In this document: positions 26,117-53,467 of the stretch, piece by piece
How the letters are laid out: every line of letters begins with the position of its first letter
Position numbering within the stretch: position 1 is the stretch's first letter
Origin: an uncultured Planctomycetia bacterium
Lineage (GTDB): Bacteria; Omnitrophota; Gorgyraeia; 1-14-0-20-64-10
Direction of reading: 5' to 3'
DNA: 64,000 bases
Assembly (NCBI GenBank): GCA_964372395.1
Contig: CAYJQV010000004.1
Span: forward strand, 2,984-66,983
Notes under the pieces: model-generated
Database searches by the model: none
The model's input: the letters and a program-made list of their open reading frames with translations, nothing else
What the model was told of the DNA's origin: nothing
Position numbers and translations under genes: made by a program

Positions 26117-26131
26117 CCTTTCAAACTCCGG

Positions 26132-26410: not shown

Positions 26411-26425
26411 TCGGACAGCGCCCTC

Positions 26426-27013
26426 CTAGATGAGATACAGCAGTGGAAAGAGAAAGATCCAGACCAGATCCACGAAATGCCAGTACAGCCCGGAGATCTC
26501 GACGATGTGGCTGCGCGCCCTGAAGAAATCACTCCGGAAGGTCGACGCCAGGACCCAGAGATTGGCGATCACCCCGCCGAGCACATGAAGCCCATGGAAG
26601 CCGGTCAGGGTGAAGTAACAGTCCCAGAAGAGGCCTGTTCCGGGCAGATGGCCGTGGGCAAACTTCACCGAGTACTCGTACGCCTTGACCCCGAGGAAAG
26701 CGGCCCCCAGCAGGATCGTCAAGGCGAGGAAGAGCCGCAGCCGGGCCGCGTCCTGCTGATGAACCGCGGCGACACCCAGCGCCATCGTCATCGAGCTCGA
26801 GAGAAGGATGAAGGTGTTGAGGGCCGCCAGCGGGATCTGGAGCTCCTCGCCCGGCTGCGGCCAGTGGGGCAGCCCCGCGCGCAGCACGATGGAGGCCCCG
26901 ATGAGGCCGGTGAAGAACATGACCTCCGAGGCCAGGAAGAGCCACATCCCCAGCTTGGGCGAGGGGATCCCGGTGGAGGTCGCCTCCAATGCATGTGCCG
27001 CTGGCTGCGTCAT
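26426..27013 (-). CDS. ctaE: cytochrome c oxidase subunit III
   Basis: ...GMWLFLASEVMFF...HGLHVLGGV... His-rich TM helices. ATGA overlap with the upstream gene. Confidence 0.85.
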   Translation of the reverse strand: MTQPAAHALEATSTGIPSPKLGMWLFLASEVMFFTGLIGASIVLRAGLPHWPQPGEELQIPLAALNTFILLSSSMTMALGVAAVHQQDAARLRLFLALTILLGAAFLGVKAYEYSVKFAHGHLPGTGLFWDCYFTLTGFHGLHVLGGVIANLWVLASTFRSDFFRARSHIVEISGLYWHFVDLVWIFLFPLLYLI

Positions 27014-28792: not shown

Positions 28793-30526
28793 GGGTTTCT
28801 CCGTCTGCAGCTGCCAGTCCCGTCTTGCCCCTGGCACGGAGTACTCGTATGGCCCGCAGTGGACGGTGGGTGTGGTGGCGAAGTTCCCGTGGGGCGGAGG
28901 AGAAGGGACGGTCCACTCCAGTGTCGTCGCCTCCCAGGGATTCTCATTCACCCTCTTGCCGCGGAAGAGAGATGAGAAGAAGTTATAGACGAAGAGAAGC
29001 TGCGACGCGAACAGGCAGAAGGCGGCCACACTCATCATCCGGTTCAACCCCACCAGATTCGCCAGGGCCGGATACTGCGTGTAGTCGTAGATCCGCCGCG
29101 GCATGCCGCCCAGGCCCAGGATGAACATCGGGAACATGACCGCATTGAAGAGCAGGAAGGAGAGCCAGAAATGGATCTTCCCCAGCCGCTCGTTCATTGC
29201 GCGGCCGAACATCTTGGGGAACCAGTAGATGATGCCGGCGAAGGCGCCGAAGAGGGAGCCGCCGAAGAGGACGTAGTGGATGTGCCCGACGACGAAGTAG
29301 GTGTCGTGCAGGTACATGTCCACCGGGGTGGAGCCGAGGAAGATGCCGGTGAGGCCCCCGATGATGAACATCGAGATGAAGCCCAGCGCGTGGAGCATCG
29401 GCGTGGTCAGCCGGATGGATCCGCGCCAGAGGGTGCCCAGCCAGCTGAACACCTTGACGCCGGTGGGGACCGCCACCGCCATGGTGGAGATCATGAAGGT
29501 GGTTCCCAGGACCGGATTCATCCCGGCGTGGAACATGTGGTGCGCCCAGACGAGGAAACCGACCGCCCCGATCCCCACGGAGGCGTAGGCGATCGCCCTG
29601 TAGCCGAAGAGCGGCTTCCGGGAGAAGTTGGGCAGGATGTCGGAGATAAAGCCCATCGCCGGCAGGATCATGATATAGACCGCCGGGTGGGAGTAGAACC
29701 AGAAGAGGTGCTGCCAGAGGACCGCCTGCCCGCCGGCGTAGGGAAGGGGATTGCCGTCAACGATCATCCCGGCCGGCAGGAAGAAGCTGGTCCCCAGCGT
29801 CCGATCCAGGAGCAGCAGGATGAGGGCTGAGGCGAGGACCGGCGTCGCCAGCAGGGTGAGCACCGCCGTCGTGAAGAGGGCCCAGATGGAGATCGGCAGA
29901 CGATGGAAGCTCATCCCCGGGGCGCGGTGATTGACGATGGTGGCGATGTAGTTCACCGACCCGAGGATGTTGGAGAACCCCAGCAGGATGAGCCCCGCCG
30001 TCCAGAAGGTCTGGCCCGCCCCCATCGTCTCCTTCGCCCCGGACAGCGGCGGGTAGGCGGTCCAGCCGGCGGCGGCGGCCCCCCCCTCCGCCCAGAACCC
30101 GAGCATGACGGTGATCGCCGCAGGCGGGAAGAGCCAGTAGGAGAGCATGTTGAGCCGCGGGAACGCCATGTCGGGCGCGCCCACTTTAAGCGGGATGAGG
30201 TAATTGCCGAAGGCGCCCGCCAGGAGCGGGATGATCCCGAAGAAGATCATCGCCGAGCCGTGCATGGTGAAGAGGACGTTGTAATACTCCGGCACCATGT
30301 AGCCGCCCGGCATCCCCTCCGGGGCGAACTTCTCCATGAAGGGCAGCGGTGTCCCCGGCCAGCCGAGCTGCCAGCGCATCAGCATGGCCAGCACGCCGCC
30401 GAAGAGCATGAAGAGCAGCGAGCTGAAGAGGAACTGGATGCCGATGATCTTATGGTCGGTCGAGAAGATGTACCTCCTCAGAAAGGGGACTGTCCCCCCC
30501 CGCCCCGGATGCGCTGCTTCACTCAT
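28781..30526 (-). CDS. ctaD: cytochrome c oxidase subunit I
   Basis: 581 aa with haem-copper oxidase His ligands throughout. The C-terminal ...KPHGV and the stop are encoded by the palindromic repeat. Confidence 0.9.
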   Translation of the reverse strand: MSEAAHPGRGGTVPFLRRYIFSTDHKIIGIQFLFSSLLFMLFGGVLAMLMRWQLGWPGTPLPFMEKFAPEGMPGGYMVPEYYNVLFTMHGSAMIFFGIIPLLAGAFGNYLIPLKVGAPDMAFPRLNMLSYWLFPPAAITVMLGFWAEGGAAAAGWTAYPPLSGAKETMGAGQTFWTAGLILLGFSNILGSVNYIATIVNHRAPGMSFHRLPISIWALFTTAVLTLLATPVLASALILLLLDRTLGTSFFLPAGMIVDGNPLPYAGGQAVLWQHLFWFYSHPAVYIMILPAMGFISDILPNFSRKPLFGYRAIAYASVGIGAVGFLVWAHHMFHAGMNPVLGTTFMISTMAVAVPTGVKVFSWLGTLWRGSIRLTTPMLHALGFISMFIIGGLTGIFLGSTPVDMYLHDTYFVVGHIHYVLFGGSLFGAFAGIIYWFPKMFGRAMNERLGKIHFWLSFLLFNAVMFPMFILGLGGMPRRIYDYTQYPALANLVGLNRMMSVAAFCLFASQLLFVYNFFSSLFRGKRVNENPWEATTLEWTVPSPPPHGNFATTPTVHCGPYEYSVPGARRDWQLQTEKPHGV

Positions 30527-31178
30527 TGGCCTTGGTCTCCTTCAGCCAGGTTTCAAACTCCGCCGGGGACTCAGCGGTCACGAATCCCCGCATGCGGTAG
30601 TGGCCCAAACCGCACAGCTCCGCGCAGCGGATCTCGAAGACCCCGGGCCGGGTCACCTCCAGCCACGCCTCCGTCGGCATCCCCGGCACGGTGTCCTGCT
30701 TCAGGCGGAACTCCGCCACGAAGAAGCTGTGGATCACATCCTTGGATCGAAGCTTGAGGAGCACCGGCTGTCCGACGGGCAGGTGCAGCTCGTTGAGGCT
30801 CGCCACGTCGTCCTCCGTCTCGAGCTGGCCGTCGGCTCCGGGGTAGCGGATGTTCCAGGCGAACTGCTCGGCCAGGATCTCGACCTGGAGCGCGTCGGGG
30901 GGCCGGTAGCCGGGGTAGCGGATCTCCGCCCAGACCCGCTGGCTGGCGAGGGTCAGCCCCGCCAGGATGAGCGCCGGGATCACCGTCCAGATGACCTCCA
31001 GGCCGGTGTGGCCGTGGACGTAAGAGGCCTTCCGATCGGCGCGCGAGCGGTACCTTAGCACGAACAGCAGAAGCCCGCCCTGGACCAGGAAGAAGAAAAA
31101 GCCGGTGATCCAGAGGATCGCCCAGAAGAGCTGATCAACCTTCGGGCCGTACGTGGAGGCCGACTCAGGAAACCACAT
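30519..31178 (-). CDS. ctaC: cytochrome c oxidase subunit II (CuA; no fused cytochrome c domain)
   Basis: Two N-terminal TM helices. HSFFVAEF...CAELCGLGHYRM is the CuA site. Confidence 0.85.
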   Translation of the reverse strand: MWFPESASTYGPKVDQLFWAILWITGFFFFLVQGGLLLFVLRYRSRADRKASYVHGHTGLEVIWTVIPALILAGLTLASQRVWAEIRYPGYRPPDALQVEILAEQFAWNIRYPGADGQLETEDDVASLNELHLPVGQPVLLKLRSKDVIHSFFVAEFRLKQDTVPGMPTEAWLEVTRPGVFEIRCAELCGLGHYRMRGFVTAESPAEFETWLKETKANE

Positions 31179-36586: not shown

Positions 36587-37384
36587 ATGCGCCGGATTTC
36601 CGTCCTCGCGATCTCAGCCCTTCTTTATTCTTCCCTTTTCCCGCGCCCGGTTTTCCCCCTGAACCTGGATCGTCTGGACGCCGAGGAGCTCCGCTTGAGG
36701 GAATCGATCATGAGGCGGCTCGTTCCGCTCGCCGACCGGCGCAGGCAAGAGGGAACCGCACCCCTCATCACCTTCGAGGAGCTGTACGCGGGCCTGAGCC
36801 AGCGGGAGATCGAGTTCCTCGAGCAGTTCCGCCGGGTGGACCCGGCGGAGGTGGGCGGCTCCAGCCGGCGGCTTCCGCCGCCAGCGGCCGACAGCGAATT
36901 CGTCCGGCTGGACCGGCAGGTGGTCCTGCGCGAGGGCAAGCCGATCCGGCTCGATGCACAGTATCTGCCGCGGACAGCGCACGAGGCGTACCGCCGGATG
37001 ATGGCGGCCATGGAGGAGGATCTCGGCAAGCGGCTGCTGGTCGAGTCCGGATACCGCTCCCCGGCCTATCAGCTCTACCTCTTCCTCTACTACATGCCAA
37101 AGCACGGCCACTCCGTCCGGGAGACCAACCGCCACGTCGCCCTGCCCGGGTGCAGCGAGCATGGGAGCCCCGATTTTCAGGCGATCGACTTCATCACCCC
37201 GGAGGGGGTGAACGGCGAGGATCGGCCGGAGGAGTTCGAGGAGCTGCAGGAGTACGGCTGGCTGCGGGCTCGCGCGCGGGAGTTCGGCTTTCGCCTGTCG
37301 TACCCTCGCGGCGGTCCCTCCGCATTCGAGCCATGGCACTGGCATTGGGAGAAAGGGAACTTTTCGGAAAGGGACTTTCCATGA
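36587..37384 (+). CDS. peptidase M15 family (VanY-like D-Ala-D-Ala / L,D-carboxypeptidase), secreted
   Basis: Signal peptide MRRISVLAISALLYSSLF. ...SGYRSPAYQ... and ...HGSPDFQAIDF... are Zn-ligand motifs. Confidence 0.7.
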   Translation: MRRISVLAISALLYSSLFPRPVFPLNLDRLDAEELRLRESIMRRLVPLADRRRQEGTAPLITFEELYAGLSQREIEFLEQFRRVDPAEVGGSSRRLPPPAADSEFVRLDRQVVLREGKPIRLDAQYLPRTAHEAYRRMMAAMEEDLGKRLLVESGYRSPAYQLYLFLYYMPKHGHSVRETNRHVALPGCSEHGSPDFQAIDFITPEGVNGEDRPEEFEELQEYGWLRARAREFGFRLSYPRGGPSAFEPWHWHWEKGNFSERDFP

Positions 37385-38943
37385 AGCCGGTGTCTCCCAA
37401 GGCGGAGCGCCCCAGCCTTTCCTGGAAGGGGCTGTACAAGGAGGCGGCGCTCTACCAAGCGGCGCTGAAGCTTTACACCAAGGCCCTCTTCCAGTGGAGG
37501 AAAGCCCTCTCCACCTCCTCCGATGGGAAGACGCTCTACGATTTTGCCCGGACGGGTCTGGAGCGCTTGGATTCGGTTCATGGAAGGCTCGAGTCTGCCA
37601 CGTTCCACTTCCGCGCGGGGACCGCCCGCACCCACAACTTCAACGGAAAGATCCGAACGCTGTACATCTATCCATGGGAGGAAAAGGTGGTGGATCTGCT
37701 GCTCTACCGGCTGATGAATGCGAAATTCCACGCCCTTTTTTCACCCTGCTCTTACGCCTACCGGTGGCGCGGGTACGGCGTAGACCTCTGCCAGAGGCGC
37801 CTCGCGTCCCAGATCGGACGGAAGGGCAAGCCCCTCTATCTCTTCAAGCGGGACATTGCCAGGTTCTTCGATTCCATCGACCATTCGATTTTGCTGGAGC
37901 GGCTCTCCGAATACGTCCCGCAGGAGGATTACCTCTGGCAGCTTCTCCGGCAGCGGGTGGAGTTTCCCTATGAAGCAGGCGGGCGGATCGTACGGGCGGC
38001 GCAGGGGGTTCCTTTCGGGACCCCGGTGGCCTGTTTCTTTGCGAACCTGTATCTGACGTGGCTGGACCGCCAGCTGGACCAGCGAAAGGGCCTGGCGTAC
38101 TTCCGCTATGCAGATGACCTGATCGGGATCGGATCCGATCCCGATGTGGTGCTGGCTGCGGCCGACTGCTGCGACCGGATGCTGGAGGAGCTGAAACTCT
38201 CCGTCAAGCCGAGCCAGTTTCTGCAGGGAGTTGTCTGCGCCACCCCGACGGAGCGCCCGCCCTTTGCCTGGATCACAAGGTTCAGGCACCTGGGACTGGA
38301 ATTTCGGTGCGATGGCCGCACAGGCCTTTCGAGGGACAAGAGGCGGAAGATCTGCAACCTTTTCCAGTATGCCTTCCGCCGCAAGGCAGGGCGGTTTCGC
38401 AAGATTTCCTCTCCGCAAAAGCGGGCCGAGCTGGCGGTGGAGATCGCCCGAAGGGTTCTGGACCAGCAGCTCCGGCACGTCAGCATCATCGACTACTACC
38501 TCAGGCACGTCCGGGATGAAGAGCAACTGCGGCAGATCGACCGGTGGCTGGCGGAGGAGGTTCTCTCCATCTCTCTGGGCGGGCACCGAAGGGGACATTT
38601 TCGTCGGATCTCCTTCCGGCGGTTGCGCGAGATGGGCCTGCCCTGCCTACGGCACCGCAGCCGCCTGATCCGCCACGGCCAGATCAAAACCTCCTTCTTC
38701 CGTTGGAAGGAGTATCAGCAACAGAAGGCAAAGCGAGGGGGATGGCGCCAGGCTGGAGGTCGGAAAAACCCCAGCCTTTTCCCCGTGCCTGGAAGCATCC
38801 GCCGCGAGCACCCCGTGGGAGAGGGAGGCGGACTGTCGACAGGCGGTATTGAAGACAGATTCGCTGAAGCGAATCTGTCGTTGTCCTGCCATCCCCCTTC
38901 GCTTCCATCCAAGAGAGAGGAGCCGACCGATGGGGCTTCTTGA
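37381..38943 (+). CDS. reverse transcriptase (RNA-directed DNA polymerase), retron / group-II-intron-like lineage, free-standing
   Basis: ATGA overlap with the M15 stop. RT motifs 1/2 (RTLYIYPWEEKVVDLLLYRLMN; SYAYRWRGYG), motif A (LFKRDIARFFDSIDHSILL), motif B (QGVPFGTPVACFFANLYL), motif C FRYADDLIGIG (YADD at 38107-38118), motifs 6/7 (LKLSVKPSQF...FRHLGLEF). No En/HNH or maturase-intron context. The C-terminal ~100 aa is low-complexity and may be non-coding. Confidence 0.85.
   Translation: MKPVSPKAERPSLSWKGLYKEAALYQAALKLYTKALFQWRKALSTSSDGKTLYDFARTGLERLDSVHGRLESATFHFRAGTARTHNFNGKIRTLYIYPWEEKVVDLLLYRLMNAKFHALFSPCSYAYRWRGYGVDLCQRRLASQIGRKGKPLYLFKRDIARFFDSIDHSILLERLSEYVPQEDYLWQLLRQRVEFPYEAGGRIVRAAQGVPFGTPVACFFANLYLTWLDRQLDQRKGLAYFRYADDLIGIGSDPDVVLAAADCCDRMLEELKLSVKPSQFLQGVVCATPTERPPFAWITRFRHLGLEFRCDGRTGLSRDKRRKICNLFQYAFRRKAGRFRKISSPQKRAELAVEIARRVLDQQLRHVSIIDYYLRHVRDEEQLRQIDRWLAEEVLSISLGGHRRGHFRRISFRRLREMGLPCLRHRSRLIRHGQIKTSFFRWKEYQQQKAKRGGWRQAGGRKNPSLFPVPGSIRREHPVGEGGGLSTGGIEDRFAEANLSLSCHPPSLPSKREEPTDGAS
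38854..38879 (+). ncRNA. perfect 11-bp stem / 4-nt loop hairpin (GACAGATTCGC-TGAA-GCGAATCTGTC), candidate structured RNA element at the RT / Zn-ribbon junction
   Basis: Seen directly. The lower-GC, non-coding-looking stretch 38700-38930 surrounds it. Confidence 0.35.
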
Positions 38944-43334: not shown

Positions 43335-44168
43335 GTGCGGGCTTGGTTGCGGCTTTGCAGTTCCAGGCGGTATAAGAATGCGGCCCGCTCGCGGCAGCTT
43401 TGCGAGCGGGCCGCTTCTTTTCTGGTCCCGCGCCTGCGGGCCGGCCCCGCGCAGTGGGTCGCCCTCGGCGTGGGGCAGGGGGAGAAGGAGATGCTTTTCC
43501 TGCGGCCTCTGGCGCCTCGGCAGAGGATCGAGTACGTACCGTGGGACACCAGTCAGACTCTCCTCGAAATGGCCGGCCGGCGCGCTCTGGGCTGCGGGCT
43601 TTCCGTTTGGGCCATGAAGGCGGACCTGGAGCAGGAGTCGCACTGGAAAGCCGTTCCGGCCGCTCCGCGTGGGAGCCGGAGGGTCCTCTCGGTTTTCGGG
43701 AACAGCCTGGGGGCCGTGAGGCTGGATCGGTTGCTCACCCGCGCCAGCCAGCTCCTTCACCGCGGAGACTGGTTCCTGGTGGACGGGGAGCTCCATGCCG
43801 GAGAGGCAACGCTCGCCGGCTACGATCATCCGGTCAACCGCGCCTTTGCCTTTGCGCCGCTTGAGGCGGCCGGATTCTCGCGGGCCGACGGGGAGCTTCG
43901 CTTCACGCTGCGCGCCCCGAGCGGCGGCTCGCCGCTGGGGCGGCTGGAGAAGCAGTTTGACCTGAAGAGACCGGTCGCCCTGCGCCTGGGCGGGGAGATG
44001 CTCCGGTTCCGGAGGGGAGATCGGATCCGGATGAGTCCTTCCGACAAGTGCGACCTCGAGGCCATGACGGCGCGGCTCGGGCAGGACCGGCTGTTTCAAG
44101 TCGAGGAGCGGCTCCTCTCGTCGGATCGGAGGTTCGCCCTCTGGATCCTGCGCAGGAGCGGCCGGTGA
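43335..44168 (+). CDS. EgtD-like (Methyltransf_33) SAM-dependent methyltransferase, N-terminally short or disrupted
   Basis: ...WVALGVGQGEKEMLFL... (compare ELGSGTSEKT), ...RIEYVPWDTS... (compare FIPFDVD), ...LSVFGNSLGAV... (compare FLGSTIGN). The upstream in-frame region still encodes an EgtD-like N-terminus but has no canonical start codon. Confidence 0.45.
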   Translation: MRAWLRLCSSRRYKNAARSRQLCERAASFLVPRLRAGPAQWVALGVGQGEKEMLFLRPLAPRQRIEYVPWDTSQTLLEMAGRRALGCGLSVWAMKADLEQESHWKAVPAAPRGSRRVLSVFGNSLGAVRLDRLLTRASQLLHRGDWFLVDGELHAGEATLAGYDHPVNRAFAFAPLEAAGFSRADGELRFTLRAPSGGSPLGRLEKQFDLKRPVALRLGGEMLRFRRGDRIRMSPSDKCDLEAMTARLGQDRLFQVEERLLSSDRRFALWILRRSGR

Positions 44169-44836
44169 AGGAGACCGCGCAGGCCTACGACCGGCTGGCG
44201 GCCGTTTACGACGAGCGGTGGCGGCACTATCTGGACGAGACCTTGGACTGGGTCTCGAGGCACGTGGAGGCCCGCTGGCCGCTCCGCCTGCTGGACGTCG
44301 GGTGCGGCACCGGCGAGCTCATCCGGCGGCTCAAGACCCACATGCGGGAGACGTTCTTCGTCGGGCTGGACCCTTCCGCCGGGATGCTGGGCCGGGCGGA
44401 TCTGAAGTTCCCGGAGGGGGAAGGCCGCACGGCGCTGGTGCAGGCTACCGCTGACAGGATCCCTTTGAAGGACGGCTCCTTCGACTGGGTCGCCTGCGTC
44501 AACAGCCTGCACTGCTTCGCAGAACCCGAGCGGGCGACCATGGAGATGGCGCGCGTCTTGAGGCCGGAAGGGAAGCTCCTTCTCATTGACTGGAGCGGGG
44601 AGTCGTGGCTGTGCCGGCTGCTGGACGCCTGGTGCCGCCGGTTCGATCCGGCCCATGTCCGGATGTACCGGCCGGACGAGGCGAAGGAGATGCTGGAGCG
44701 GGCCGGGCTTTCCCTGCTGGCGATTGAGAACTTCCGGGTGGGCGGGCCGGCCGGCCTTCGCCTGTGGGAGATGATGTCGCTGACGGCGGTCAAGCCGGCC
44801 TCCGGGCTGCCCGCGTCAAGCGGGTTGGCCGCGTGA
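44165..44836 (+). CDS. class I SAM-dependent methyltransferase (Methyltransf_11/25-like)
   Basis: GTGA overlap with the upstream stop. [11 protein letters not shown] motif I. Confidence 0.7.
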
Positions 44837-44880: not shown

Positions 44881-44970
44881 TTTGTGGTAGCATGGGCGCT
44901 GGCGGCGGCGTGGCTGGCCCTCTTCGTCGCGGGCGGGCCGGACGCAGAGGCGGCAGGGACCTCGCCCAGG

Positions 44971-47109
44971 ATGAAACGAGACGCTCCACCCCACACCAAT
45001 CGGCTGATCCGGGAAAAATCCCCCTATCTCCTCCAGCACGCGGACAACCCTGTGGACTGGTACCCCTGGGGGGAGGAGGCCTTCGAGAAGGCCCGCCGGG
45101 AGGAGAAGCCGATCTTTCTCTCCATCGGCTACTCCACCTGTCACTGGTGCCACGTCATGGAGCGGGAATCATTCGAGGATCCGGAGGTGGCCTCCATCCT
45201 GAACGAGCATTTTGTCTCCATCAAGGTGGACCGGGAGGAGCGGCCGGACGTGGACAGCCTCTACATGCAGTCGGTCATCGAGATCACCGGGCAGGGGGGC
45301 TGGCCGCTGTCGGTCTTCCTGACGCCGGAGCTCAAGCCGTTCTACGGAGGGACCTACTTCCCGCCGGAGGACCGCTGGGGCCAGCCGGGCTTCAAGAGAC
45401 TTCTGCTCGGCCTGGCCGACGCCTGGAAGAAACAGCGGGACCAGATCCTCGACTCCAGCGAGCGGCTGGTCCGGCTGCTCCGGGAGGGGGAGGGATCGCT
45501 CGGTTCGGGTGAGCTTCTCCTTTCGGAAGAGGTCCTGCGCACCGCCTACCGGCTCTTCGAGGCCACCTTCGATGAGCGGTTCGGCGGCTTCGGCTCGGCG
45601 CCCAAGTTTCCGTCGGCCCACAACCTCTCGTTCCTGCTCCGGTATTGGAAGCGGTCCCGGCAGGAGCGCGCGCTCGAGATGGTGGAGGCGACCCTCGAGG
45701 CGATGGCGGCGGGCGGGATCTTCGATCAGCTCGGAGGCGGCTTCCACCGCTACTCCACCGACGCCCAGTGGCGGATCCCCCATTTTGAGAAGATGCTCTA
45801 CGACCAGGCGATCCTCTCCCGCGCCTATCTGGAGGCGCATCAGGCAGCGGGGAAGGAGGCGTACGGCGCGGTGGCCCGCCGGATCTTCGACTACGTCCTT
45901 CAGGATCTGACCGGGCCGGAAGGGGCCTTTTATTCAGCGGAGGACGCCGACAGCGAGGAACCCGCGACGGCGCCCTCGGCACCAAGTGCCAAGCCGGTAC
46001 CTGGTACCGAAAAGAAGGAAGGGGCCTTCTATCTCTGGACGGAGAAGGAGATCGAGGAGCTTCTGGGTCCTGAGCGGGCGAAGACTTTCAGGGCCGCCTA
46101 CGGCGTGACGCGCGGCGGCAATGCGCTGAGTGACCCCACAGGGGAGCTGCGCGGAAAGAACGTCCTGTACCTCGCCCGCCCTGCCGGAGAGATGCCGGAG
46201 CTGGCGCGGGAGAAGGAGATCCTCCTGGCGGCGCGCCTTCGCAGGCCGAGGCCGCACCGGGATGACAAGGTTCTGACCGACTGGAATGGCCTCATGATCT
46301 CCAGTCTCGCCTTCGGCTCGCGTGTCCTGGCTGAGCCGCGGTACCGGGAGGCGGCGGAAAGGGCGGCACAGTTCATCCTGGCCCGGCTGATCCGGGAGGA
46401 CGGCCGGCTCCTCCACCGCTGGCGGGATGGGGAGGCGGCCATCCTGGGGACCCTCGAGGATTACGCCTTCCTGATCCACGGCCTCGTGGATCTCTACGAG
46501 GCGACCTTCGAGGCGGTCTACCTCGCGCAGGCCAAGCGGCTGACCGGGGAGATGGTGCGCCTCTTCTGGGATGAATCTCAGGGCGGTTTCTTCCTCGCCG
46601 GCTCCGACGCGGAGCTGCTGCCGGTCCGCCAGAAGCGGTTCTCCGACGGGGCGATCCCCTCAGGGCACTCCATCGCGGTGCTCGATCTGGTCCGGGTGGG
46701 GCGGCTCACCATGCAGCGGGACTGGGAGGCAAGGGCGGAGCAGGTGCTGCGGTCTCTGCTCGAGAAATCGTCAGCGCCGGAATCGGCCCGGCACCCGGGT
46801 GCTTTCCCCCAGATCCTGGCCGCGCTCGATTTCCTGCTGGGCCCCTCGATGGAAATCGTGATCGCCGGAGCCCCGGAGGACCCGGCGACCGGAAAGATGA
46901 TCCGGGCGGTCTGGGAGAGATTCATCCCCAACCGGGTGGTCGTCTTCCATCCGCCCGGCCCGGCCGGCGAGGCGATCGAGAAGGTGGTCCCCTTCGTGGA
47001 AGGCCAAGTTGCCCAGGAGGGCAAGCCGACCGCCTACGTCTGCCGGAACTACGCCTGCGACCTGCCGGTGACCAGCGTGGAGAAGCTCCATGAGCAGCTC
47101 GAGCGATAG
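44971..47109 (+). CDS. thioredoxin-domain protein of the DUF255/YyaL family (N-terminal Trx-like domain + six-hairpin glycosidase-like domain)
   Basis: ...[29 protein letters not shown]...STCHWCHVM... is the hallmark of this family. An alternative GTG at 44884 would add a signal-peptide-like extension. Confidence 0.8.
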
Positions 47110-49678
47110 GGACGCTCGGACCGTTCCGGCTTCCGGCGTCCATCTTCCCAGAATGTTCCGCTGGCAAGCGGAGGAGATCTTCTTTTTCCTGGACCCTGAA
47201 TCCCCCCACTGGATCGCCACCGATGCGCGGGCGGCCAGGATCATCGGCTGGCTGGAGGAGGGCTTGACCGGCGAGCCGCTCCTTCATCGCTACGCCCAGG
47301 CCGAGGGGCTTGCGGTGGAGAAGGCCTGGCTGCACCTGCACGACTTCACAGGGGCGCTGTTGCGCTGCGGGTTCGCTCAAACCCAACCGGCCCAGCCGAA
47401 GCCTTACCTCGGCCGGGCCGCTTACGCCGCTGCCGGCGCCTTGCGGGAGCTCTGGCTCCACACGAACAACATCTGCAACCTGAGCTGCACCCATTGCCTG
47501 GTGGACTCCGCCCCATGGGTGAAGGACTGGGGCCTTCCGACGCCGCAGATCCCCGAGCTGGTGGACGAGGCGGCGGCCCTCGGTGCGGACCGGTTCTATC
47601 TGACCGGCGGGGAGCCGTTCATGAGGAAGGATCTGGGCCGGATCCTCAGCCACATCACCGAGCGCCGGAAGGCGGAGGCGATCGTGCTCACCAACGCGAT
47701 GCTGCTCAAGGGAGAGCGCGGCGGGGAGCTGAAACGCCTGCCGAGGGAGCGTCTGCGGTTTCAGGTGAGTCTGGATGGGGCGACTCCTGCAACCAACGAC
47801 CGGATCCGGGGCGTCGGCTCCTTCGAGCGGACGCTGGAAGGCCTTCGCTGGCTCAACGCCCACGGCTTTGAAACCTCTCTGACCACCGTGGTGACCCGAG
47901 CCAACCTGCAGGAGCTGCCGGGGCTGGCCCGCCTCTGCCGGCAGGCGGGCGGCCGGGTGCAGCACCTCATGTGGGCTCATCGCCGGGGCCGGATCCTCTC
48001 CGGGACGGCAGCGGACGATTTCCCAACGGCGGAGGAGCTGGCCGCGGCGGTCCGCCGGGTCCGGCGCGTCGCGGAAGAGGAGGGTGTCGCGCTGGACAAC
48101 TGGGAGACGGTCAAGCAGCGGGTCAACGGCCCCCCCGGGGTCAAGTACGATCTGGGCAACGCCTGCTGGGATTCCCTCTGCATCTATTCCGACGGGACGG
48201 TGTACCCCTCCGCGGCGCTGGCCAATTTTCCGCCGCTCGCGCTGGGCTCCCTGCAAGGATCCGGCCGGGAACCGGGCCGCAAGCCCGACCGGCTCGCCGA
48301 GATCTGGCAGAATTCACCGGTCGCCCGGACGTTCCGCCGGATGAGCCTGGTGGACAAGCAAACCCTGGCGGAGGATCCTTTCCGGTTCCTCACCGGAGGG
48401 GGGGACATCGAGCACTCCTTCTGGTTCAACCTCAACGGCGAATCCCCCGCGGCTCCCATCGCCCCGGAGCGGCTCCGCCGGATCCTGGCGGGGCCGGATC
48501 CCTACCATCCGCTCTACGTCGCGCTCATGAAGGATGCGATGGCCGAGATCGCCCGCCGCCAGCGCGATTCGATCAACCGCCGCTCCGGCTACGATGTGCC
48601 GCGGATCCTCCATGCCATGGGGCAGGGGGCGATCCACTGCGCCACGGAGGATCTGGCGGTGACCGAGGAGGTGGATGTCCGGACGCTCCATTCCAACTGC
48701 GTCCTGGCATTCGACGTGGACAAGCCCCGGCGGCTGGTGCGCGAGTACTACGGAAAGGCCGCTTTAAAACCGGTGGCGGAGCTCTGCTGTCCGACGAAGT
48801 TCGATCCATCCCTCGTCGGGCACATCCCCCAGGAGGTGGTGGATCGGTTCTACGGCTGCGGCTCGCCGGTCACCCTGGCGGGGCTCCGGCCGGGCGAGAC
48901 GCTGGTCGACCTGGGCTCGGGCGCCGGGATTGACTGCTTCATCGCGGCCAAGCTCGCGGGGCCGACCGGCAAAGCGATCGGCATCGATATGACCGATGAG
49001 ATGCTCAAGGTGGCCAATGCGAATCGGCCTGTGGTCGCCGCCAACCTCGGCTACGACGTCGTCGAGTTCCGCAGCGGGTACCTCGAGCAGGTGCCGGTGG
49101 AATCCAAGTTTGCGGATGTGGTCACCTCCAACTGTGTGGTCAACCTCTCGCCGGACAAGCCGAAGGTCTTCGCCGAGATTTGGAGGATCCTGAAGGACAA
49201 CGGCCGGATGGTGGTGGCCGACATCGTCTCCGACCGGCCGGTGCCGGCCCGCCTGAAGGTCAATCCCCAGCTCTGGGGCGAGTGCACGGTGGGCGCCCTC
49301 ACCGAGGCGGAATTCCTGGCTGGGTTGGAGGAGGCCGGCTTCTACGGCCTGTCTGTCTTGAAGAAGAGCTACTGGAAGGCGATCGAGGGCTACGACTTTT
49401 ATTCGGTGACGGTGCTGGGGTTCAAGTTCGAGAAGACGTCCGGCTGCCGCTTCATCGGTCAGCGGGCGATCTACCTCGGCCCCTTCAAGTCGGCCATGGA
49501 CGAGGAAGGGCATCTCTTCCCCCGCAACGAGCCGGTGGAGGTCTGCACCGACACCGCCGCCAAGCTGGCCAAGCCCCCATACGCCGGCAGATTCATCGTC
49601 ATTGCGAGCCCCGGCCCTTCCGCCGTTGCGGGCCCCGAAGGGGCGAAGCAATCTGCGTGCGGCCCCGGCTGCTGCTAA
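47090..49678 (+). CDS. fusion protein: radical SAM / SPASM-like domain (ArsS-like) + arsenite S-adenosylmethionine methyltransferase (ArsM)
   Basis: CNLSCTHC (CxxxCxxC) radical SAM cluster. ...[14 protein letters not shown]... auxiliary-cluster-like Cys. C-terminal half has ...ELCCPTKF...[52 protein letters not shown]...SNCVVNL...WGECTVGA... with all ArsM catalytic cysteines. An alternative start ATG lies at 47153. Confidence 0.75.
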
Positions 49679-49767: not shown

Positions 49768-50106
49768 ATGGCACGCAACCGATCTTGGATGCTCGTTGTG
49801 ATCTTGACGGGGATGGTGGCACTCGCCTCGGCGGGGGTCTCCTCTGCGGAGGAGGCGACCGCCTGGAACAAGCTGCAGCGGGGCGCGGTCAACACGACCA
49901 CCGGATGGCTGGAGATGATGGTTCAGCCGGTCGAGGGAGCGAAGGCCGAGTCCCCCTTCATGGGGGTGGTCACCGGCTTTGGGAAGGGGATCCTGCTGGG
50001 ACTGCAGCGGACCGGCCTGGGACTGGCGGACAGCCTCTCCTTTCCGGTCGGGCCGTACGATCGGCCCGCCATGGAGCCGGAGACCCTCTTCGGCCCGGTC
50101 AAGTAA
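49768..50106 (+). CDS. exosortase system-associated protein, TIGR04073 family
   Basis: 112 aa, signal peptide. ...GAVNTTTGWLEMM... is the family core. Confidence 0.6.
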   Translation: MARNRSWMLVVILTGMVALASAGVSSAEEATAWNKLQRGAVNTTTGWLEMMVQPVEGAKAESPFMGVVTGFGKGILLGLQRTGLGLADSLSFPVGPYDRPAMEPETLFGPVK

Positions 50107-50139
50107 GCTTAGTCGGCGTATCCGTCGTTTCAGCGGCAC

Positions 50140-50178
50140 GGGGTCAGACCCTCAAGGGGTCTGACCCCGTTTTTTCGG
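50140..50178 (+). terminator. Rho-independent terminator formed by palindromic repeat copy E (GGGGTCAGACCC-tcaa-GGGGTCTGACCCC + GTTTTTTCGG)
   Basis: Perfect 12-bp stem, 4-nt loop and a U-run. Confidence 0.8.
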
Positions 50179-50191
50179 TAGGCCAGCCAGC

Positions 50192-51433
50192 GTGAAGGTT
50201 TCGGTCATCCTGCCGGTGCTGGACGAAGCGGAGAACCTGCGCCGGCTGCTCCCCCAGCTTGTCGGCCGCGCCGAGGAGGTATGGGTGGCTGACGGCGGCT
50301 CCACCGACTCCACGGCTCGAGATGCCGAGGCCGCAGGCGCCCGAGTGATCCGATCCCCGCGCGGCCGCGGAGCGCAGATGAATGCGGCAGCGGCGCAGGC
50401 GACCGGGGATCTCCTGTGGTTCCTCCACGCCGATTCCGTCGTGCCGGCCGACTGGCGGCACCAGATCACGCAAGCCCTCCGGGACCCTGCGATTCTCGGC
50501 GGAGCGTTCCGTGTCCGGATTGACGCCCCCGGCCTGCCTTACCGCCTGCTGGATGCGTGGGGCCTGCTGCGGCTCAGATTCCAGCCGGGCTGTTTCTACG
50601 GGGATCAGGGGATCTTCGTCCGGCGGGAGGCGTTTGAGCGTCTCGGCGGCTTCTCCGACTGGCCGGCGCTGGAGGACCTGGACTTCTCATTTCGCTTGAA
50701 TCGGCTCAGGAGGACGCGCCTGCTCAACGCAAAAATCCTCACCTCCGCCCGGCGCTGGAAGCAGGAAGGTTGGTGGCGCACGGTGATCCAGCACAGCCGG
50801 GCGGCCCTCTCGTATCGGCCATTGACCTTGGGGATCCTGGCCAAGGCCCCGATCCCAGGCCAGGTCAAGACCCGCTTGTGCCCGCCGCTCACGCCGGAGC
50901 AGGCGGCGAATCTGGCCGGCCGGCTCCTCGCGGAAACGGTCTCAACCGCCCGGGAGCTTCCCCGGGTGCGCGTGACGGTGGTGGTGGCGCCGGATGAAGG
51001 GATCCCGCATGTCCGGGAGCTTCTCCCCAGAGCCATTCCGATGATTCCGCAGGGGGACGGTGATTTCGGCAGGAGGATGCTTCGGTTCTTTGAGTCGGCC
51101 TTCCAGGAGGGATCCCGCGGAGCCGTCATCCTGGGCGCGGATCACCCCGGCCTGCCCAAGGAGTACCTGGCGCAGGCGATCGGTTTCCTTCGGAAGGGAA
51201 GGGACGAGGTGGTTCTCGGTCCGACGGAGGACGGCGGCTACTACCTGATCGGGATGGCCCGGCTTCACCCGGAGCTGTTCGAGGGGATCCCCTGGAGCAC
51301 ATCGGAGGCGTTCCGGCTGACCTGCGACCGGGCGAAGCGCCTCGGCTTGCCGGTTGCCGTGCTGCCGTCGTGGTTCGACCTCGACCGCCCGGAGGACCTG
51401 GCCCGGTTTGCGCGGCATACCGCCGTCGGGTAG
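50192..51433 (+). CDS. fused family-2 glycosyltransferase (TIGR04283-like) / DUF2064 (TIGR04282-like) protein
   Basis: GTG start. N-terminal VSVILPVLDEAENL...ADGGSTD GT2 motifs. The C-terminal half resembles DUF2064. Confidence 0.6.
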   Translation: MKVSVILPVLDEAENLRRLLPQLVGRAEEVWVADGGSTDSTARDAEAAGARVIRSPRGRGAQMNAAAAQATGDLLWFLHADSVVPADWRHQITQALRDPAILGGAFRVRIDAPGLPYRLLDAWGLLRLRFQPGCFYGDQGIFVRREAFERLGGFSDWPALEDLDFSFRLNRLRRTRLLNAKILTSARRWKQEGWWRTVIQHSRAALSYRPLTLGILAKAPIPGQVKTRLCPPLTPEQAANLAGRLLAETVSTARELPRVRVTVVVAPDEGIPHVRELLPRAIPMIPQGDGDFGRRMLRFFESAFQEGSRGAVILGADHPGLPKEYLAQAIGFLRKGRDEVVLGPTEDGGYYLIGMARLHPELFEGIPWSTSEAFRLTCDRAKRLGLPVAVLPSWFDLDRPEDLARFARHTAVG

Positions 51434-51442
51434 AATGGCCTT

Positions 51443-51769
51443 ATGGGGATGCCGGACAAGCCGCCGCGGGCGAGGGACCCGAGGATCGCAGCGGTGGTCA
51501 ACCAGAACGGGTGCACCGGGTGCGAGGCGTGTATCACCGTCTGCCCGGTGGACTGCATCGAGACCGTGCCGGGAGCGGAGAGGCCGGGGCTGTTCAGGCT
51601 CGTGGAGATCGACCTGGACCGCTGCATCGGCTGCGGGCTCTGCCCCAAGATCTGCCCGTGGGACACGATCACGATGGAGCCGTACCCGCAGGCCAAGGAG
51701 ATCGCCCCGCTGGTCACCTTTCGCAGCGTGGTCCCCGGCCATCGGGCGGGGGTGAGCTCGCCGGTCTGA
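51443..51769 (+). CDS. 2x[4Fe-4S] ferredoxin
   Basis: CTGCEACITVCP and CIGCGLCPKICP cluster motifs. Confidence 0.8.
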   Translation: MGMPDKPPRARDPRIAAVVNQNGCTGCEACITVCPVDCIETVPGAERPGLFRLVEIDLDRCIGCGLCPKICPWDTITMEPYPQAKEIAPLVTFRSVVPGHRAGVSSPV

Positions 51770-51787: not shown

Positions 51788-52258
51788 ATGGCGACGTATC
51801 TGACCAAGGCCGGCGTGGCCAAGCTGGAGGGCGAGCTGAAGGAATTTCGCCGGCAGAAACACTCCCTGGAGGAAGAGGTACGTAAGGCCCGTGAACACGG
51901 CGACCTCCGGGAGAACGCGGAGTACCAGGCGGCCAAGGAGCGCCTGCAGCAGGTCATGGGCAGGATCGCGGATCTGCAGTACAAGCTCTCCCACGTCGAG
52001 GTCGTGGATCCCTCCGAACAGAAGAGCGATGCGGCGATCCTCGGCACCCGCGTCACCGTCAGGGATTTGAGCACCGGCCGGCAGGAGCGGTACACGCTGG
52101 TGGGGCCGGATGAATCGGATCCGGCCTCCGGCAGGATCTCCATGCTCTCCCCCCTGGGCAAGGCGTTCCTCGGGCACAAGGTGAAGGAAAAGGTGACCGC
52201 CCAGCTTCCCGGCGGGGCGCTCTCCTTCGAGATCCTCTCCATCGAGCCGGCCGGGTAG
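51788..52258 (+). CDS. greA: transcription elongation factor GreA
   Basis: N-terminal coiled coil. The ...GDLRENAEY... acidic finger. C-terminal FKBP-like domain. Confidence 0.9.
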   Translation: MATYLTKAGVAKLEGELKEFRRQKHSLEEEVRKAREHGDLRENAEYQAAKERLQQVMGRIADLQYKLSHVEVVDPSEQKSDAAILGTRVTVRDLSTGRQERYTLVGPDESDPASGRISMLSPLGKAFLGHKVKEKVTAQLPGGALSFEILSIEPAG

Positions 52259-52264
52259 CCCCTC

Positions 52265-53467
52265 TTGGGATCCCCAGACCGGAACCGGATTCTCCTGGCG
52301 GCGTTCCTGCGCGCGTTGGGAACCGGTCAGGTGGGGGTGCTGCTCGCCCTCTATCTGGCCAAGGGGGGATTGGACGCCGGCCGGATCGGTCTCCTGGTGG
52401 CGATCGGGCTGGCGGGGCTGGCGGCCGGGACCTTCCTGGTCAGCTTCTGGGCCGATCGGATCGGACGGCGGCGGACCCTCATGCTCCTCGCCGGGTTGAC
52501 TGCGCTCGGCGGTTTCGGGCTGGCCCTTTTCCCTTCGTTTCCTCTGCTGGCGGGCCTGTGCTTCCTTGGGATGGTCAACGCCATGGGCCGGGAGCGGGGA
52601 GCCCTCTTCACGCTGGAGGTGGCGATTCTCCCCGAGACCACCGACGCGGCCCACCGCACCCAGGCGCTGGCCTGGTACAACCTTATCCTGGATGTCGGGC
52701 TGGGCCTGGGTTCCCTTCTGGCCGGTCTGCCGGTTCTCCTGCGCCGCACGCTCGCTCTTCCCGAGTTGGCGTCGTATCAGTGGACCTTCGCGGGGTATGG
52801 CGCGCTGGGGATTTTGTCCATCCTCCTCTATCTGGGCCTGACACCCCGGGTCGAGACGCACGGGCCGACCCCGTGGCACCGGGTCAGCCCCGCATCCCGC
52901 AAGGTGATTACCCGCCTGTCGCTGCTCTCGGGGCTCGACAGCTTTGCCGGCGGATTCCTGCCCGCGACCCTGATCGCTTACTGGTTCTTCAAGAGGTTCG
53001 GCGCGGACGAGGCGGTCCTTGGGCCCCTCTTCCTCGTGGCCCACCTGGTGAACGCCCCGTCGTACCTGGTGGCGGCGTGGCTCTCCCGGCGGATCGGTCT
53101 GGTGAACACCATGGTCTTCACCCACCTTCCGGCCAACCTGTCCCTCATCGCGATTCCCTTCGCTCCTTCTTTTGCAGCGGCGGTCGGGCTTTATCTGGTG
53201 CGGGAGTTCCTGGTGGAGATGGATGTCCCCACGCGGCAGTCGTACATCCTGGCCGTGGTGGAGCCCGGCGAGCGGACCCTGGCGTCGGGGGTCACGAATC
53301 TCAGCCGGACCGGGGCCTGGGCGCTGGGGCCCACCCTCTCGGGATACGCGATGAAGAACCTGAGCCTGAGCATGCCCCTCTTCATCGGCGGGGGACTCAA
53401 GGTGGTTTACGATCTGTGGCTGTGGGCCGCCTTCCGGCGGCTCAAGCCGCCCGAGGAACGGCGATGA
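52265..53467 (+). CDS. MFS transporter
   Basis: 12 TM helices. Start TTG. Confidence 0.7.
   Translation: MGSPDRNRILLAAFLRALGTGQVGVLLALYLAKGGLDAGRIGLLVAIGLAGLAAGTFLVSFWADRIGRRRTLMLLAGLTALGGFGLALFPSFPLLAGLCFLGMVNAMGRERGALFTLEVAILPETTDAAHRTQALAWYNLILDVGLGLGSLLAGLPVLLRRTLALPELASYQWTFAGYGALGILSILLYLGLTPRVETHGPTPWHRVSPASRKVITRLSLLSGLDSFAGGFLPATLIAYWFFKRFGADEAVLGPLFLVAHLVNAPSYLVAAWLSRRIGLVNTMVFTHLPANLSLIAIPFAPSFAAAVGLYLVREFLVEMDVPTRQSYILAVVEPGERTLASGVTNLSRTGAWALGPTLSGYAMKNLSLSMPLFIGGGLKVVYDLWLWAAFRRLKPPEERR

Follow-up and report, generated by a model that had tools for sequence, protein, structure and literature searches.

A fused radical S-adenosylmethionine (SAM) enzyme and arsenite methyltransferase is encoded in a 64,000-nucleotide (nt) stretch of DNA from an uncultured bacterium of the Omnitrophota (GenBank assembly GCA_964372395.1, contig CAYJQV010000004.1, positions 2,984 to 66,983 of the forward strand), which is referred to here as the window. 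The fusion gene lies on the plus strand at 47090–49678. Its product is almost certainly bifunctional, and the balance of the evidence tips towards an enzyme of organoarsenical biosynthesis that stands in for two separate proteins, ArsS and ArsM. In the pathway of Synechocystis sp. PCC 6803, ArsM and ArsS catalyse consecutive steps, ArsS being a radical-SAM enzyme that adds the 5′-deoxyadenosyl radical to dimethylarsenite. Membership of the fusion in an arsenosugar-type pathway is probable, while adenosylation as its specific chemistry (5′-deoxyadenosyl addition), assigned by analogy with ArsS, is a tentative proposal that falls somewhat short of an even chance. If the fusion does replace the pair, its radical-SAM half would be a non-orthologous functional replacement of ArsS from outside the ArsS family. 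No description of this architecture was found in the searchable literature, and no curated model names it.

An uninterrupted gene for a two-module protein

Translation of the window gave, at 47090–49678, an open reading frame (ORF) of 862 codons plus stop with no internal stop codon. The ORF begins with ATG, with GGAG just upstream, and its start overlaps the end of a DUF255 gene by 20 nt (the TAG stop of the latter is at 47107–47109). An independent annotation of a metagenome-assembled genome (MAG; GCA_947085785.1, contig CAMTXW010000070.1) contains the identical 862-amino-acid (aa) gene call. The continuous frame, the concordant MAG call and the abundance of full-length relatives bear out the single-polypeptide fusion proposed in an earlier reading of the bare sequence (the original prediction), and they rule out a frameshift or two separate genes. 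Two of the domain models by which that prediction could be checked were detected above their Pfam thresholds in the 862-aa protein: Radical_SAM (PF04055) at aa 126–282 with 80.3 bits (cut-off 29.5) and Methyltransf_31 at aa 600–747 with 101 bits (cut-off 27). The Pfam scan found no lipid-binding or acyl-carrier domain. All the motifs quoted in the original prediction are present, namely CNLSCTHC (C129/C133/C136), ELCCP (C566/C567), SNCVVNL (C682), WGECTV (C732) and the ACGPGCC tail (C857/C861/C862), to which YGCGSP (C590) can be added as a further ArsM motif. The proposed division into about 470 and 390 aa has to be moved, as the border between the modules is near aa 545 and splits the protein into about 545 + 317 aa. 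In the full-length AlphaFold2 model (predicted local distance difference test, pLDDT, 86.4; predicted template modelling score, pTM, 0.88), the pTM suggests a defined packing of the two halves. The parts of the gene are as follows.

47090..49678, plus strand: fusion gene, 862 aa, with RRE-like domain, radical-SAM core, degenerate SPASM, family-specific extension and ArsM-type methyltransferase (ORF, MAG gene call, relatives, AlphaFold2)
47138..47374, plus strand: PqqD/RRE-like N-terminal domain, about aa 17–95 (PF05402 in relatives; model; alignment with SuiB and CteB)
47441..47989, plus strand: radical-SAM core, about aa 118–300, with CX3CX2C at 47474–47497 and GGEP at aa 173–176 (PF04055)
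48137..48505, plus strand: degenerate SPASM-like domain, about aa 350–472 (alignment with distant relatives; fold match)
48506..48724, plus strand: family-specific C-terminal extension of the radical-SAM module, about aa 473–545 (conservation of C517 and HSNC537VLAFD)
48725..49615, plus strand: ArsM-type As(III) SAM-methyltransferase module, about aa 546–842 (alignments with ArsM structures in the PDB; invariant cysteines)
49616..49675, plus strand: flexible C-terminal tail, aa 843–862, ending C857-GPG-C861-C862 (pLDDT <50; conservation in 95 sequences)

A radical-SAM half on a predicted maturase-type scaffold

Conservation was assessed in 95 sequences. In these, C129-X3-C133-X2-C136 and the residues T172, G173, G174 and E175 are invariant, and P176 of the GGEP motif is kept in at least 90%. 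The corresponding region of the AlphaFold2 model (aa 120–295) is a confident succession of alternating strands and helices that matches solved radical-SAM cores. The label "ArsS-like" given to this half in the original prediction did not hold. With the ArsS model TIGR04167 the score is 57.5 bits (cut-off 300), which is rank 18 among radical-SAM families; the match spans profile positions 7–151 of 303 only, with no match to the second half of the profile, and the DUF3641-type, C-terminal Cys-rich (seleno)domain of ArsS was undetected. The best NCBIfam match is instead the Rv1681 family (NF049973; 146 bits over aa 120–285, cut-off 380), followed by SPASM enzymes of the sactipeptide, mycofactocin, heme and PQQ types. 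No literature was found on the function of Rv1681, so this match adds no functional information. Within aa 1–545 Pfam detected nothing beyond Radical_SAM, and the NCBIfam search gave no family model match over aa 296–543.

The predicted structure was more informative about the rest of this half. The model of aa 1–545 (pLDDT 90.4, pTM 0.91) was compared with solved folds by Foldseek, and the nearest were SkfB (5e-16), SuiB, CteB, BlsE, anSME, TigE, ChlB and PqqE. CteB aligned over about 496 columns with template modelling (TM) scores of 0.57/0.71, and the matches to anSME, CteB, SuiB, PqqE and SkfB continue through the SPASM-like region. At the N-terminus, three strands followed by three helices (pLDDT >90) form an RRE-like domain that aligns with the RRE-bearing maturases SuiB and CteB, in which the domain order is the same. 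In this domain P39 and W41 are invariant. The PqqD model PF05402 gave no score in the window protein; it matches the relatives P0132, P0155 and P0144 and also appears in precomputed Pfam lists. Similarly, PF13186 (SPASM) has no match in the window protein and is present in relatives. On the predicted fold and these sequence matches, the N-terminal half is best described as a radical-SAM enzyme on the RRE-rSAM-SPASM scaffold of peptide maturases.

The additional Cys clusters of SPASM/twitch kind that had been reported for this half are not there: the fold is SPASM-like, but nearly all SPASM cysteines have been replaced. The alignment shows that distant relatives retain the full SPASM Cys set (DLCNxC...YPC, CxxCx5CGGGC, DPYC, and the C-terminal C and HCxCVL), whereas the window clade has DLGNA.W...YPS, FLTGGGDxEHS, DPYYP and HSNCVL at the same sites; P0125 and P0128 are in an intermediate state. 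Going by its sequence, the window clade has lost the ligands of both auxiliary Fe-S clusters. Other cysteines are conserved. C364 and C537 are invariant, C517 is found in at least 90% of the sequences, and the core HSNCVL.F of the HSNC537VLAFD motif is invariant. C537, and usually C517 too, is kept across the wider family, in which the motif reads HCxCVL. There was no consistent support for C364 as a substitute for the missing first Cys of HCxC, since P0160 and P0134 are without both.

A complete arsenic-binding site in the ArsM half

The assignment of the C-terminal half to the ArsM type has been confirmed by alignment to solved structures. Residues 539–840 align to ArsM of Chlamydomonas (5evj, E=2.5e-40, chain residues 16–342) and of Cyanidioschyzon (4fr0/4fs8, E=1e-36). 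The YGCG, SNCV and GEC motifs align residue for residue with 4kw7 and 5evj, and C566 corresponds to the first conserved Cys of 5evj. C566/C567, C590, C682 and C732 are invariant in the 95 sequences, and we take them to be equivalent to C44, C72, C174 and C224 of CmArsM. The class-I SAM-binding motif DLGSGAGID is also present, with DLGSGxG invariant or nearly so. As judged from its sequence, this module is an ArsM-type As(III) SAM methyltransferase with the full four-cysteine arsenic-binding site.

The curated models place it at some distance from its named relatives. PRK11873 (arsenite methyltransferase) scores 224 bits (cut-off 263), NF040538 (arsinothricin ArsM) 198 bits (cut-off 500; profile positions 167–355 of 356) and NF038099 (arsenosugar ArsM) 144 bits (cut-off 400). 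As no curated cut-off is reached, the ArsM half belongs in the ArsM superfamily and outside all modelled subfamilies. The ArsM modules of fusion loci score a median of 450 bits against the ArsM half of the window, compared with a median of 175 bits for ArsR-linked stand-alone ArsMs. The tail that follows (aa 843–862) is disordered in the full-length model (pLDDT <50), and its cysteines are conserved, C857 and C861 being invariant and C862 nearly so.

Distribution of the fusion and its wider family

When 5.8 billion proteins were searched, full-length relatives (820–920 aa, 95–100% query coverage, 54–90% identity) turned up as at least 120 cluster representatives, each with both Pfam domains. 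Those bearing any name are called just "methyltransferase domain-containing protein". The relatives come from Omnitrophica, Acidobacteriota, Gemmatimonadota, Nitrospirota and Planctomycetota, the closest being Omnitrophica MAGs, and the full-length gene was found in 26 further species-representative genomes of Thermoanaerobaculia, Terriglobia, Vicinamibacterales, Gemmatimonadota, Nitrospirota and Planctomycetota. Two of the fusion genes are disrupted, that of L004 by a TAG at 8892–8894 and that of L024 by a frameshift at about 10820–10850. These are assembly errors or pseudogenes and no selenocysteine sites. In-frame selenocysteine, which had been suggested as something to look for in relatives, was found in none, and the single in-frame stop seen, the TAG of L004, stands at the site of the invariant Tyr472 (DPY*P).

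When the radical-SAM half alone (aa 1–545) was used as the query of an exhaustive HMMER search, 115 representatives were recovered at E<=1e-30. Ten of these wider relatives were scanned for domains. Radical-SAM and ArsM-type Methyltransf_31 domains followed each other in the same order as in the window in four cases and in the reverse order, methyltransferase first, in two; an extra C-terminal DUF5714 was present in four cases (about 1000–1080 aa), and the radical-SAM module was free-standing in one. The repeated fusion of the two modules, in either order, strongly indicates a joint function. The triple fusions, in which a radical-SAM domain and an ArsM-like methyltransferase precede the Cys-rich DUF5714, are P0134, P0139, P0160 and P0164, and the methyltransferase-rSAM-SPASM proteins of reverse order are P0166 and P0175.

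A split version of the system, that is, a lone copy of this radical-SAM module beside a lone ArsM, was found in none of 54 stand-alone arsM loci. Separately, the stand-alone ArsMs of L028–L031 (Nitrospirota, Leptospirillia, Nitrospinales) score 294–360 bits to the ArsM half of the fusion and are thus far nearer to it than the usual ArsR-linked ArsMs, with their median of 175 bits; the radical-SAM module is not near these genes. They may be fission products or represent the ancestral partner type.

The fusion and the ArsS/ArsM pair as alternative occupants of one gene set

The evidence that carries the proposed function comes from gene context. Thirty-one fusion loci were compared (32 with L090, see below), accessory genes being looked for within 10 kb, and 54 stand-alone arsM loci fetched in the same scan served as the comparison set. 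Five partner families recur in the 31 loci: phosphate transporters of the PHO4/PiT type in 12 (L002, L004, L005, L006, L012, L013, L015, L017, L022, L082, L083 and L085), often abutting the fusion; TIGR04283/TIGR04282-like transferases in 10; VTT/DedA proteins in nine; and a MerA-like FAD disulfide reductase and DUF547 in eight each. Two loci of Omnitrophica illustrate the arrangement, with the gene orders DUF547-GT2-DsrE-PyrRedox-VTT-FUSION-PHO4-GT2/DUF2064-FA hydroxylase (L082; FA, fatty acid) and PyrRedox-VTT-DUF547-FUSION-ArsR-PHO4 (L083). At least one accessory gene was present in 24 of 32 fusion loci versus 4 of 54 stand-alone arsM loci (Fisher p=1e-10), and a transferase homologue in 11 of 32 versus none of 54 (p=5e-6). 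An ArsR-type gene was found in a single fusion locus out of 32, whereas 40 of the 54 stand-alone arsM loci have one, mostly just upstream (p=2.5e-11), a layout that is classic for resistance genes. Other recurrent partners (Metallophos phosphoesterase, nucleoside hydrolase, APH kinase, DsrE, patatin and fatty-acid hydroxylase) were too sporadic to be retained, and clustering of all neighbours (ORFs of at least 60 aa) revealed no small ORF kept beside the fusion across loci. A literature search for a link between DUF547 and arsenic found nothing relevant.

The transferase families provide the connection to ArsS. TIGR04283 and TIGR04282 were defined through their association with the TIGR04167 radical-SAM protein, and they bear the names "arsenosugar biosynthesis glycosyltransferase" at NCBI and "rSAM/selenodomain-associated transferase 1/2" at JGI. 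The converse survey covered 84 transferase loci, of which 80 were metagenome loci fetched via transferase alignment and 4 were looked up individually; the latter contained no ArsS-type radical-SAM neighbour of the transferase homologues. The fusion occurs in one of the 84 (L090), flanked by reductase, VTT and transferase genes, and another radical-SAM ORF, mostly of 320–420 aa and in a few cases cut by contig ends, in 15. All ten of these ORFs that were scanned proved to be true ArsS (TIGR04167 356–458 bits), and with four true ArsS sequences as queries a strong ArsS match was obtained in 16 of the 84 loci. The ArsS loci also hold the PyrRedox reductase, VTT and DUF547, and a separate arsM lies beside arsS in L123, L133, L136 and L159, that of L136 encoding a bona fide arsenosugar ArsM (NF038099 558 bits, cut-off 400). 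Thus, four of the five recurring partner families, all but PHO4, also accompany true ArsS with a separate ArsM. The exception was seen in only one of the 84 transferase loci against 12 of 31 fusion loci, and PHO4 therefore seems specific to fusion-type clusters and not to ArsS clusters.

The two kinds of locus do not overlap. The ArsS queries detected no separate ArsS in fusion loci, where only the fusion gene itself matched (41–49 bits), and no fusion was found in ArsS loci. Taken together with the common accessory genes, this lack of shared loci means that, over a span of about 10 kb, one gene set is occupied either by the fusion or by the ArsS/ArsM pair. The suggestion of a small organoarsenical gene cluster in the window can accordingly be kept in part: a combined TIGR04283 and TIGR04282 transferase is encoded by the second gene downstream of the fusion, and in relatives the fusion takes the place of ArsS plus ArsM within much the same clusters, but the upstream methyltransferases on which the suggestion drew are not conserved.

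An observation apart is that an inosine-uridine-preferring nucleoside hydrolase is encoded directly 3′ of the TIGR04283/TIGR04282 transferase in L088 (10352–11350) and in L110. Such an enzyme, though rare, would fit the adenine-removal step of arsenosugar biosynthesis.

Proposed mechanism and points against it

In the proposed mechanism, the ArsM module would methylate As(III) and so deliver a trivalent arsenical, most probably dimethylarsenite. A second SAM would then be cleaved reductively by the radical-SAM module, which would form a C–As bond on this methylated product; the most likely reaction, as in ArsS, would be addition of the 5′-deoxyadenosyl radical to give 5′-deoxy-5′-dimethylarsinoyl-adenosine. 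The partner composed of TIGR04282 (nucleotidyltransferase-like, CofC/MobA-like) and TIGR04283 (GT2) might subsequently process the arsenosugar moiety. Between the two active sites arsenic could be held by the flexible CGPGCC tail, by C364/C517/C537 or by both, and the Cys-rich As(III)-binding tail of ArsL makes such a carrier role plausible, by analogy, for the tail of the fusion. More speculatively, PHO4 might import arsenate along with phosphate, and the MerA-like reductase and the DUF255 protein might regenerate thiols.

Several points weigh against this reading. The similarity to ArsS is just that of a generic core (57.5 bits), so that the argument for equal chemistry is one of gene context alone, and the words "arsenosugar biosynthesis" in the names of TIGR04283 and TIGR04282 are themselves a context-based inference by the curators. 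The transferases often occur with no radical-SAM gene nearby, eight of the 32 fusion loci have no accessory gene inside 10 kb, and the mutual exclusivity of fusion and ArsS was scored over about 10 kb only. The conserved RRE-like domain, which normally binds peptides, is not explained by an ArsS-like small-molecule reaction, and the ArsM half falls under the cut-off of every curated ArsM model. Finally, no cultured host was found, every cluster member with an organism name being a MAG.

Alternative explanations

To our knowledge, only two radical-SAM enzymes make C–As bonds, ArsS for arsenosugars and ArsL for arsinothricin. There is a small but appreciable chance that the radical-SAM half is a third such enzyme, evolved independently from a maturase scaffold that shed its auxiliary Fe-S clusters. 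Thiolates (C364/C517/C537, the CGPGCC tail, which the RRE-like domain possibly docks, or both) would then ferry the arsenic from the methyltransferase site to the radical site or back, and the product, formed in widespread uncultured phyla of soil and groundwater, could be an organoarsenical that has no assigned gene, such as an arsenolipid precursor.

A related but unlikely explanation is that the radical-SAM half makes a C–As bond other than that of ArsS. It could, for example, abstract hydrogen from a lipid or another carbon substrate, and the methylated arsenical would trap the radical so formed, to yield an arsenolipid-type or other organoarsenical in place of 5′-deoxy-5′-dimethylarsinoyl-adenosine. 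The different lineage of the radical-SAM module is consistent with this, as are the lipid-related neighbours of some loci (patatin, fatty-acid hydroxylase, VTT/DedA, GT2), and the specificity of PHO4 for the fusion (12 of 32 fusion loci versus 1 of 84 transferase loci) hints at a physiology somewhat different from that of ArsS clusters. However, the lipid-related genes are sporadic, with patatin in two fusion loci and fatty-acid hydroxylase in one, the most strongly shared partners are those of ArsS too, and the protein is without an acyl-carrier or lipid-binding domain.

It is distinctly unlikely that the radical-SAM half is a peptide or protein maturase that acts on a peptide or on its own Cys-rich tail, the methyltransferase then acting on that product or on a non-arsenic substrate. 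This possibility is raised by the conserved RRE-like N-terminal domain, by the nearest folds, which are maturases of ribosomally synthesised and post-translationally modified peptides (SkfB, SuiB, CteB and ChlB), and by the sactipeptide and mycofactocin maturases that are the top named NCBIfam families after Rv1681. Yet no small ORF is conserved beside the fusion across loci (the 112-aa gene of the window recurs only in the closest relative), and the auxiliary-cluster cysteines of canonical SPASM enzymes have been lost in the window clade. In addition, the methyltransferase keeps the complete and strictly conserved arsenic-binding cysteines of ArsM, and the gene context is that of an arsenic pathway.

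A fused form of an ArsL/ArsM-like pair, in which an ArsL-like aminocarboxypropyl transfer would be followed by methylation by the ArsM half to give arsinothricin or an analogue, is very unlikely. ArsL and ArsM do work consecutively, ArsL binds As(III) via a Cys-rich C-terminal tail and the tail of the fusion is also Cys-rich; moreover, the match of the ArsM half to the arsinothricin ArsM model (198 bits) lies in the C-terminal part of that profile and takes in its end, and a gene for a major facilitator superfamily (MFS) transporter lies downstream. On the other hand, NF040542, the ArsL family, is not among the 25 best NCBIfam matches of the N-terminal half (the lowest listed has 45 bits), the RCCLKC motif is absent from the sequence, and the conserved partners are sugar- or nucleotide-type transferases and not the ArsQ permease.

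In the least probable explanation, the protein is a methyltransferase for arsenic resistance whose accessory radical-SAM domain makes no separate product (it might, for instance, supply electrons or support anaerobic methylation), or else its substrate is another metalloid (Sb, Se, Te): ArsM-family enzymes are best known for detoxification, an ArsR-type gene adjoins the fusion in one locus (L083) and mercury- and copper-resistance genes flank L082, but ArsR linkage is rare for the fusion (1 of 32 loci) and common for stand-alone arsM (40 of 54), all radical-SAM catalytic motifs are strictly conserved and the association with biosynthetic transferases is strong.

Gene neighbourhood and other features of the window

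All genes from the EgtD-like gene (43491) to the end of the MFS transporter gene (53467) are on the plus strand. The features around the fusion are the following.

43380..43414, plus strand: terminator-like hairpin with a 15-bp stem, upstream of the EgtD-like gene (consensus scan only)
43491–44168, plus strand: EgtD-like methyltransferase, 225 aa, truncated (Pfam Methyltransf_33, 50 bits, weak)
44165–44836, plus strand: class-I, UbiE-like methyltransferase, here called MT2 (Pfam, 80 bits)
44884–47109, plus strand: DUF255/Thioredox_DsbH thioredoxin-fold protein (Pfam PF03190, 266 bits)
49768–50106, plus strand: 112-aa TIGR04073 protein between the fusion and transferase genes (NCBIfam, 59.5 bits, cut-off 50)
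50138..50170, plus strand: terminator-like hairpin with T run between the 112-aa and transferase genes, a copy of the GGGTC(A/T)GACCC repeat (consensus scan)
50192–51433, plus strand: fused TIGR04283 (GT2) and TIGR04282 (DUF2064, nucleotidyltransferase-like) "arsenosugar biosynthesis" transferase (221 bits, cut-off 182; 189 bits, cut-off 134)
51443–51769, plus strand: 2x[4Fe-4S] ferredoxin (Fer4_7 and related matches)
51788–52258, plus strand: GreA
52265–53467, plus strand: MFS transporter

The overlapping stops and starts described upstream of the fusion exist between the EgtD-like gene and MT2 (4 nt) and between the DUF255 gene and the fusion (20 nt), but MT2 and the DUF255 gene are separated by a gap of 47 nt. 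The hairpin at 43380–43414 is the likely 5′ boundary of the transcription unit, and the two hairpins, both from the consensus scan only, would bracket a unit from the EgtD-like gene to the 112-aa gene.

Conservation of the upstream genes, which had been taken as part of the cluster, is poor. The pair of EgtD-like gene and MT2 is specific to this MAG: neither gene adjoins the fusion in any of the 26 genome loci examined or of the 4 loci looked up individually. The pair was therefore rejected as a conserved cluster and is regarded as a lineage-specific insertion. L085, the locus of the nearest relative for which the context is available (P0003, 69% identity), has a PHO4 transporter gene at the position of the pair in an otherwise syntenic stretch. 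The two enzymes may modify the product further in the lineage of the window only. The DUF255 gene is only weakly recurrent, lying beside the fusion only in the window and in L085. The ferredoxin and the 112-aa gene, too, are common only to these two; the ferredoxin is a possible electron donor to the radical-SAM cluster, a link that is weak because of this restricted conservation. DUF255/Thioredox_DsbH homologues were also observed elsewhere, besides that of L085 (2499–4742): after an ArsM-like gene in L034 (about 11026) and near transferase genes in L089 and L154. Their recurrence near ArsM-like and TIGR04283 genes of unrelated lineages hints at a redox partner, although so few cases do not amount to evidence.

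Elsewhere in the window, the near-palindrome GGGTC(A/T)GACCC forms a dispersed intergenic repeat that resembles repetitive extragenic palindromic elements, with 27 matches versus 3.4 expected. Copies occur in groups of 2–3, with a spacing that is mostly about 15 nt but 25 nt at 28753–28788, and the sites include 21467–21507, 28287–28327, 28753–28788 and 50141–50167. A plus-strand reverse transcriptase gene at 37150–38943 is group II intron maturase-like (RVT_1; TIGR04416 110 bits, cut-off 300), with weaker matches to Drt3a, Drt2 and retron reverse transcriptases; an Rfam scan of the whole window gave no match to any family, and so neither group II intron RNA nor riboswitches. The strong AT skew of 0.25–0.31 at 26000–30600 is ordinary because of the minus-strand genes for cytochrome oxidase subunits I and III that lie there (COX1 511 bits, COX3 78 bits).

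Implications and comparison with known systems

If the favoured reading is true, the family would be a third solution for making C–As bonds, with a different architecture. Its hosts (Acidobacteriota, Omnitrophota, Gemmatimonadota, Nitrospirota and Planctomycetota) are abundant and mostly uncultured bacteria of soil, sediment and groundwater. Because the family is common in these phyla and lies outside ArsS, surveys based on ArsS (TIGR04167) alone would miss their organoarsenical capacity. The single gene offers a handle for heterologous expression, and its partners (the two transferases, DUF547, VTT/DedA, the MerA-like reductase and PHO4) are candidates for later steps towards arsenosugars or arsenolipids. 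For enzymologists, a SPASM-fold enzyme that is without auxiliary-cluster cysteines yet strictly conserved would be a useful natural experiment.

Among known systems, the RRE-rSAM-SPASM maturases (SkfB, SuiB, CteB, anSME, PqqE) share fold and domain order with the radical-SAM half (Foldseek E 5e-16 to 1e-10), and distant members of the fusion family score as PqqD + Radical_SAM + SPASM. The fusion differs from them in its family-specific C-terminal extension (C517, C537) and the ArsM module, in the absence of nearly all auxiliary-cluster cysteines from the window clade, and in having no conserved precursor peptide gene nearby (ORFs of at least 60 aa). The Rv1681 family is the best curated model for the radical-SAM core (146 bits), but the score is far under its cut-off of 380 and only profile positions 73–236 of 326 are matched. 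With the classical ArsR-regulated enzymes (CmArsM, CrArsM), the ArsM half has in common the methyltransferase fold, the SAM motif and the four catalytic cysteines. In contrast to them, the fusion is not ArsR-linked (1 of 32 versus 40 of 54 loci), scores below the PRK11873 cut-off (224 versus 263) and has an ArsM half that forms a separate sequence group (median 450 versus 175 bits).

The ArsL/ArsM system demonstrates that an organoarsenical, arsinothricin, can be made by a radical-SAM enzyme and ArsM alone, one after the other. ArsL represents the radical-SAM subfamily with an RCCLKC tail (NF040542), a Cys-rich C-terminal tail that binds As(III). The N-terminal half of the fusion has no detectable match to the ArsL family and no RCCLKC, its gene context differs, and its own Cys-rich tail (CGPGCC) is on the ArsM module, whereas that of ArsL is on the radical-SAM enzyme.

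The closest functional parallel, by analogy, would be the pair of ArsS (TIGR04167) and ArsM, in which a radical-SAM enzyme and an ArsM methyltransferase likewise serve consecutive steps and with which the fusion shares the neighbouring TIGR04283/TIGR04282 transferases, MerA-like reductase, VTT/DedA and DUF547. The differences are nevertheless clear. The fusion scores 57.5 bits where the cut-off is 300 and true ArsS reaches 356–458; it begins with an RRE-like domain and contains a degenerate SPASM domain, and the DUF3641-type Cys-rich domain was undetected in it. It is a single chain that starts with the radical-SAM module, while in split loci arsS comes after arsM, and PHO4 is a frequent extra partner. 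The fusion would thus extend, and not overturn, the known logic by which a radical-SAM enzyme is paired with ArsM.

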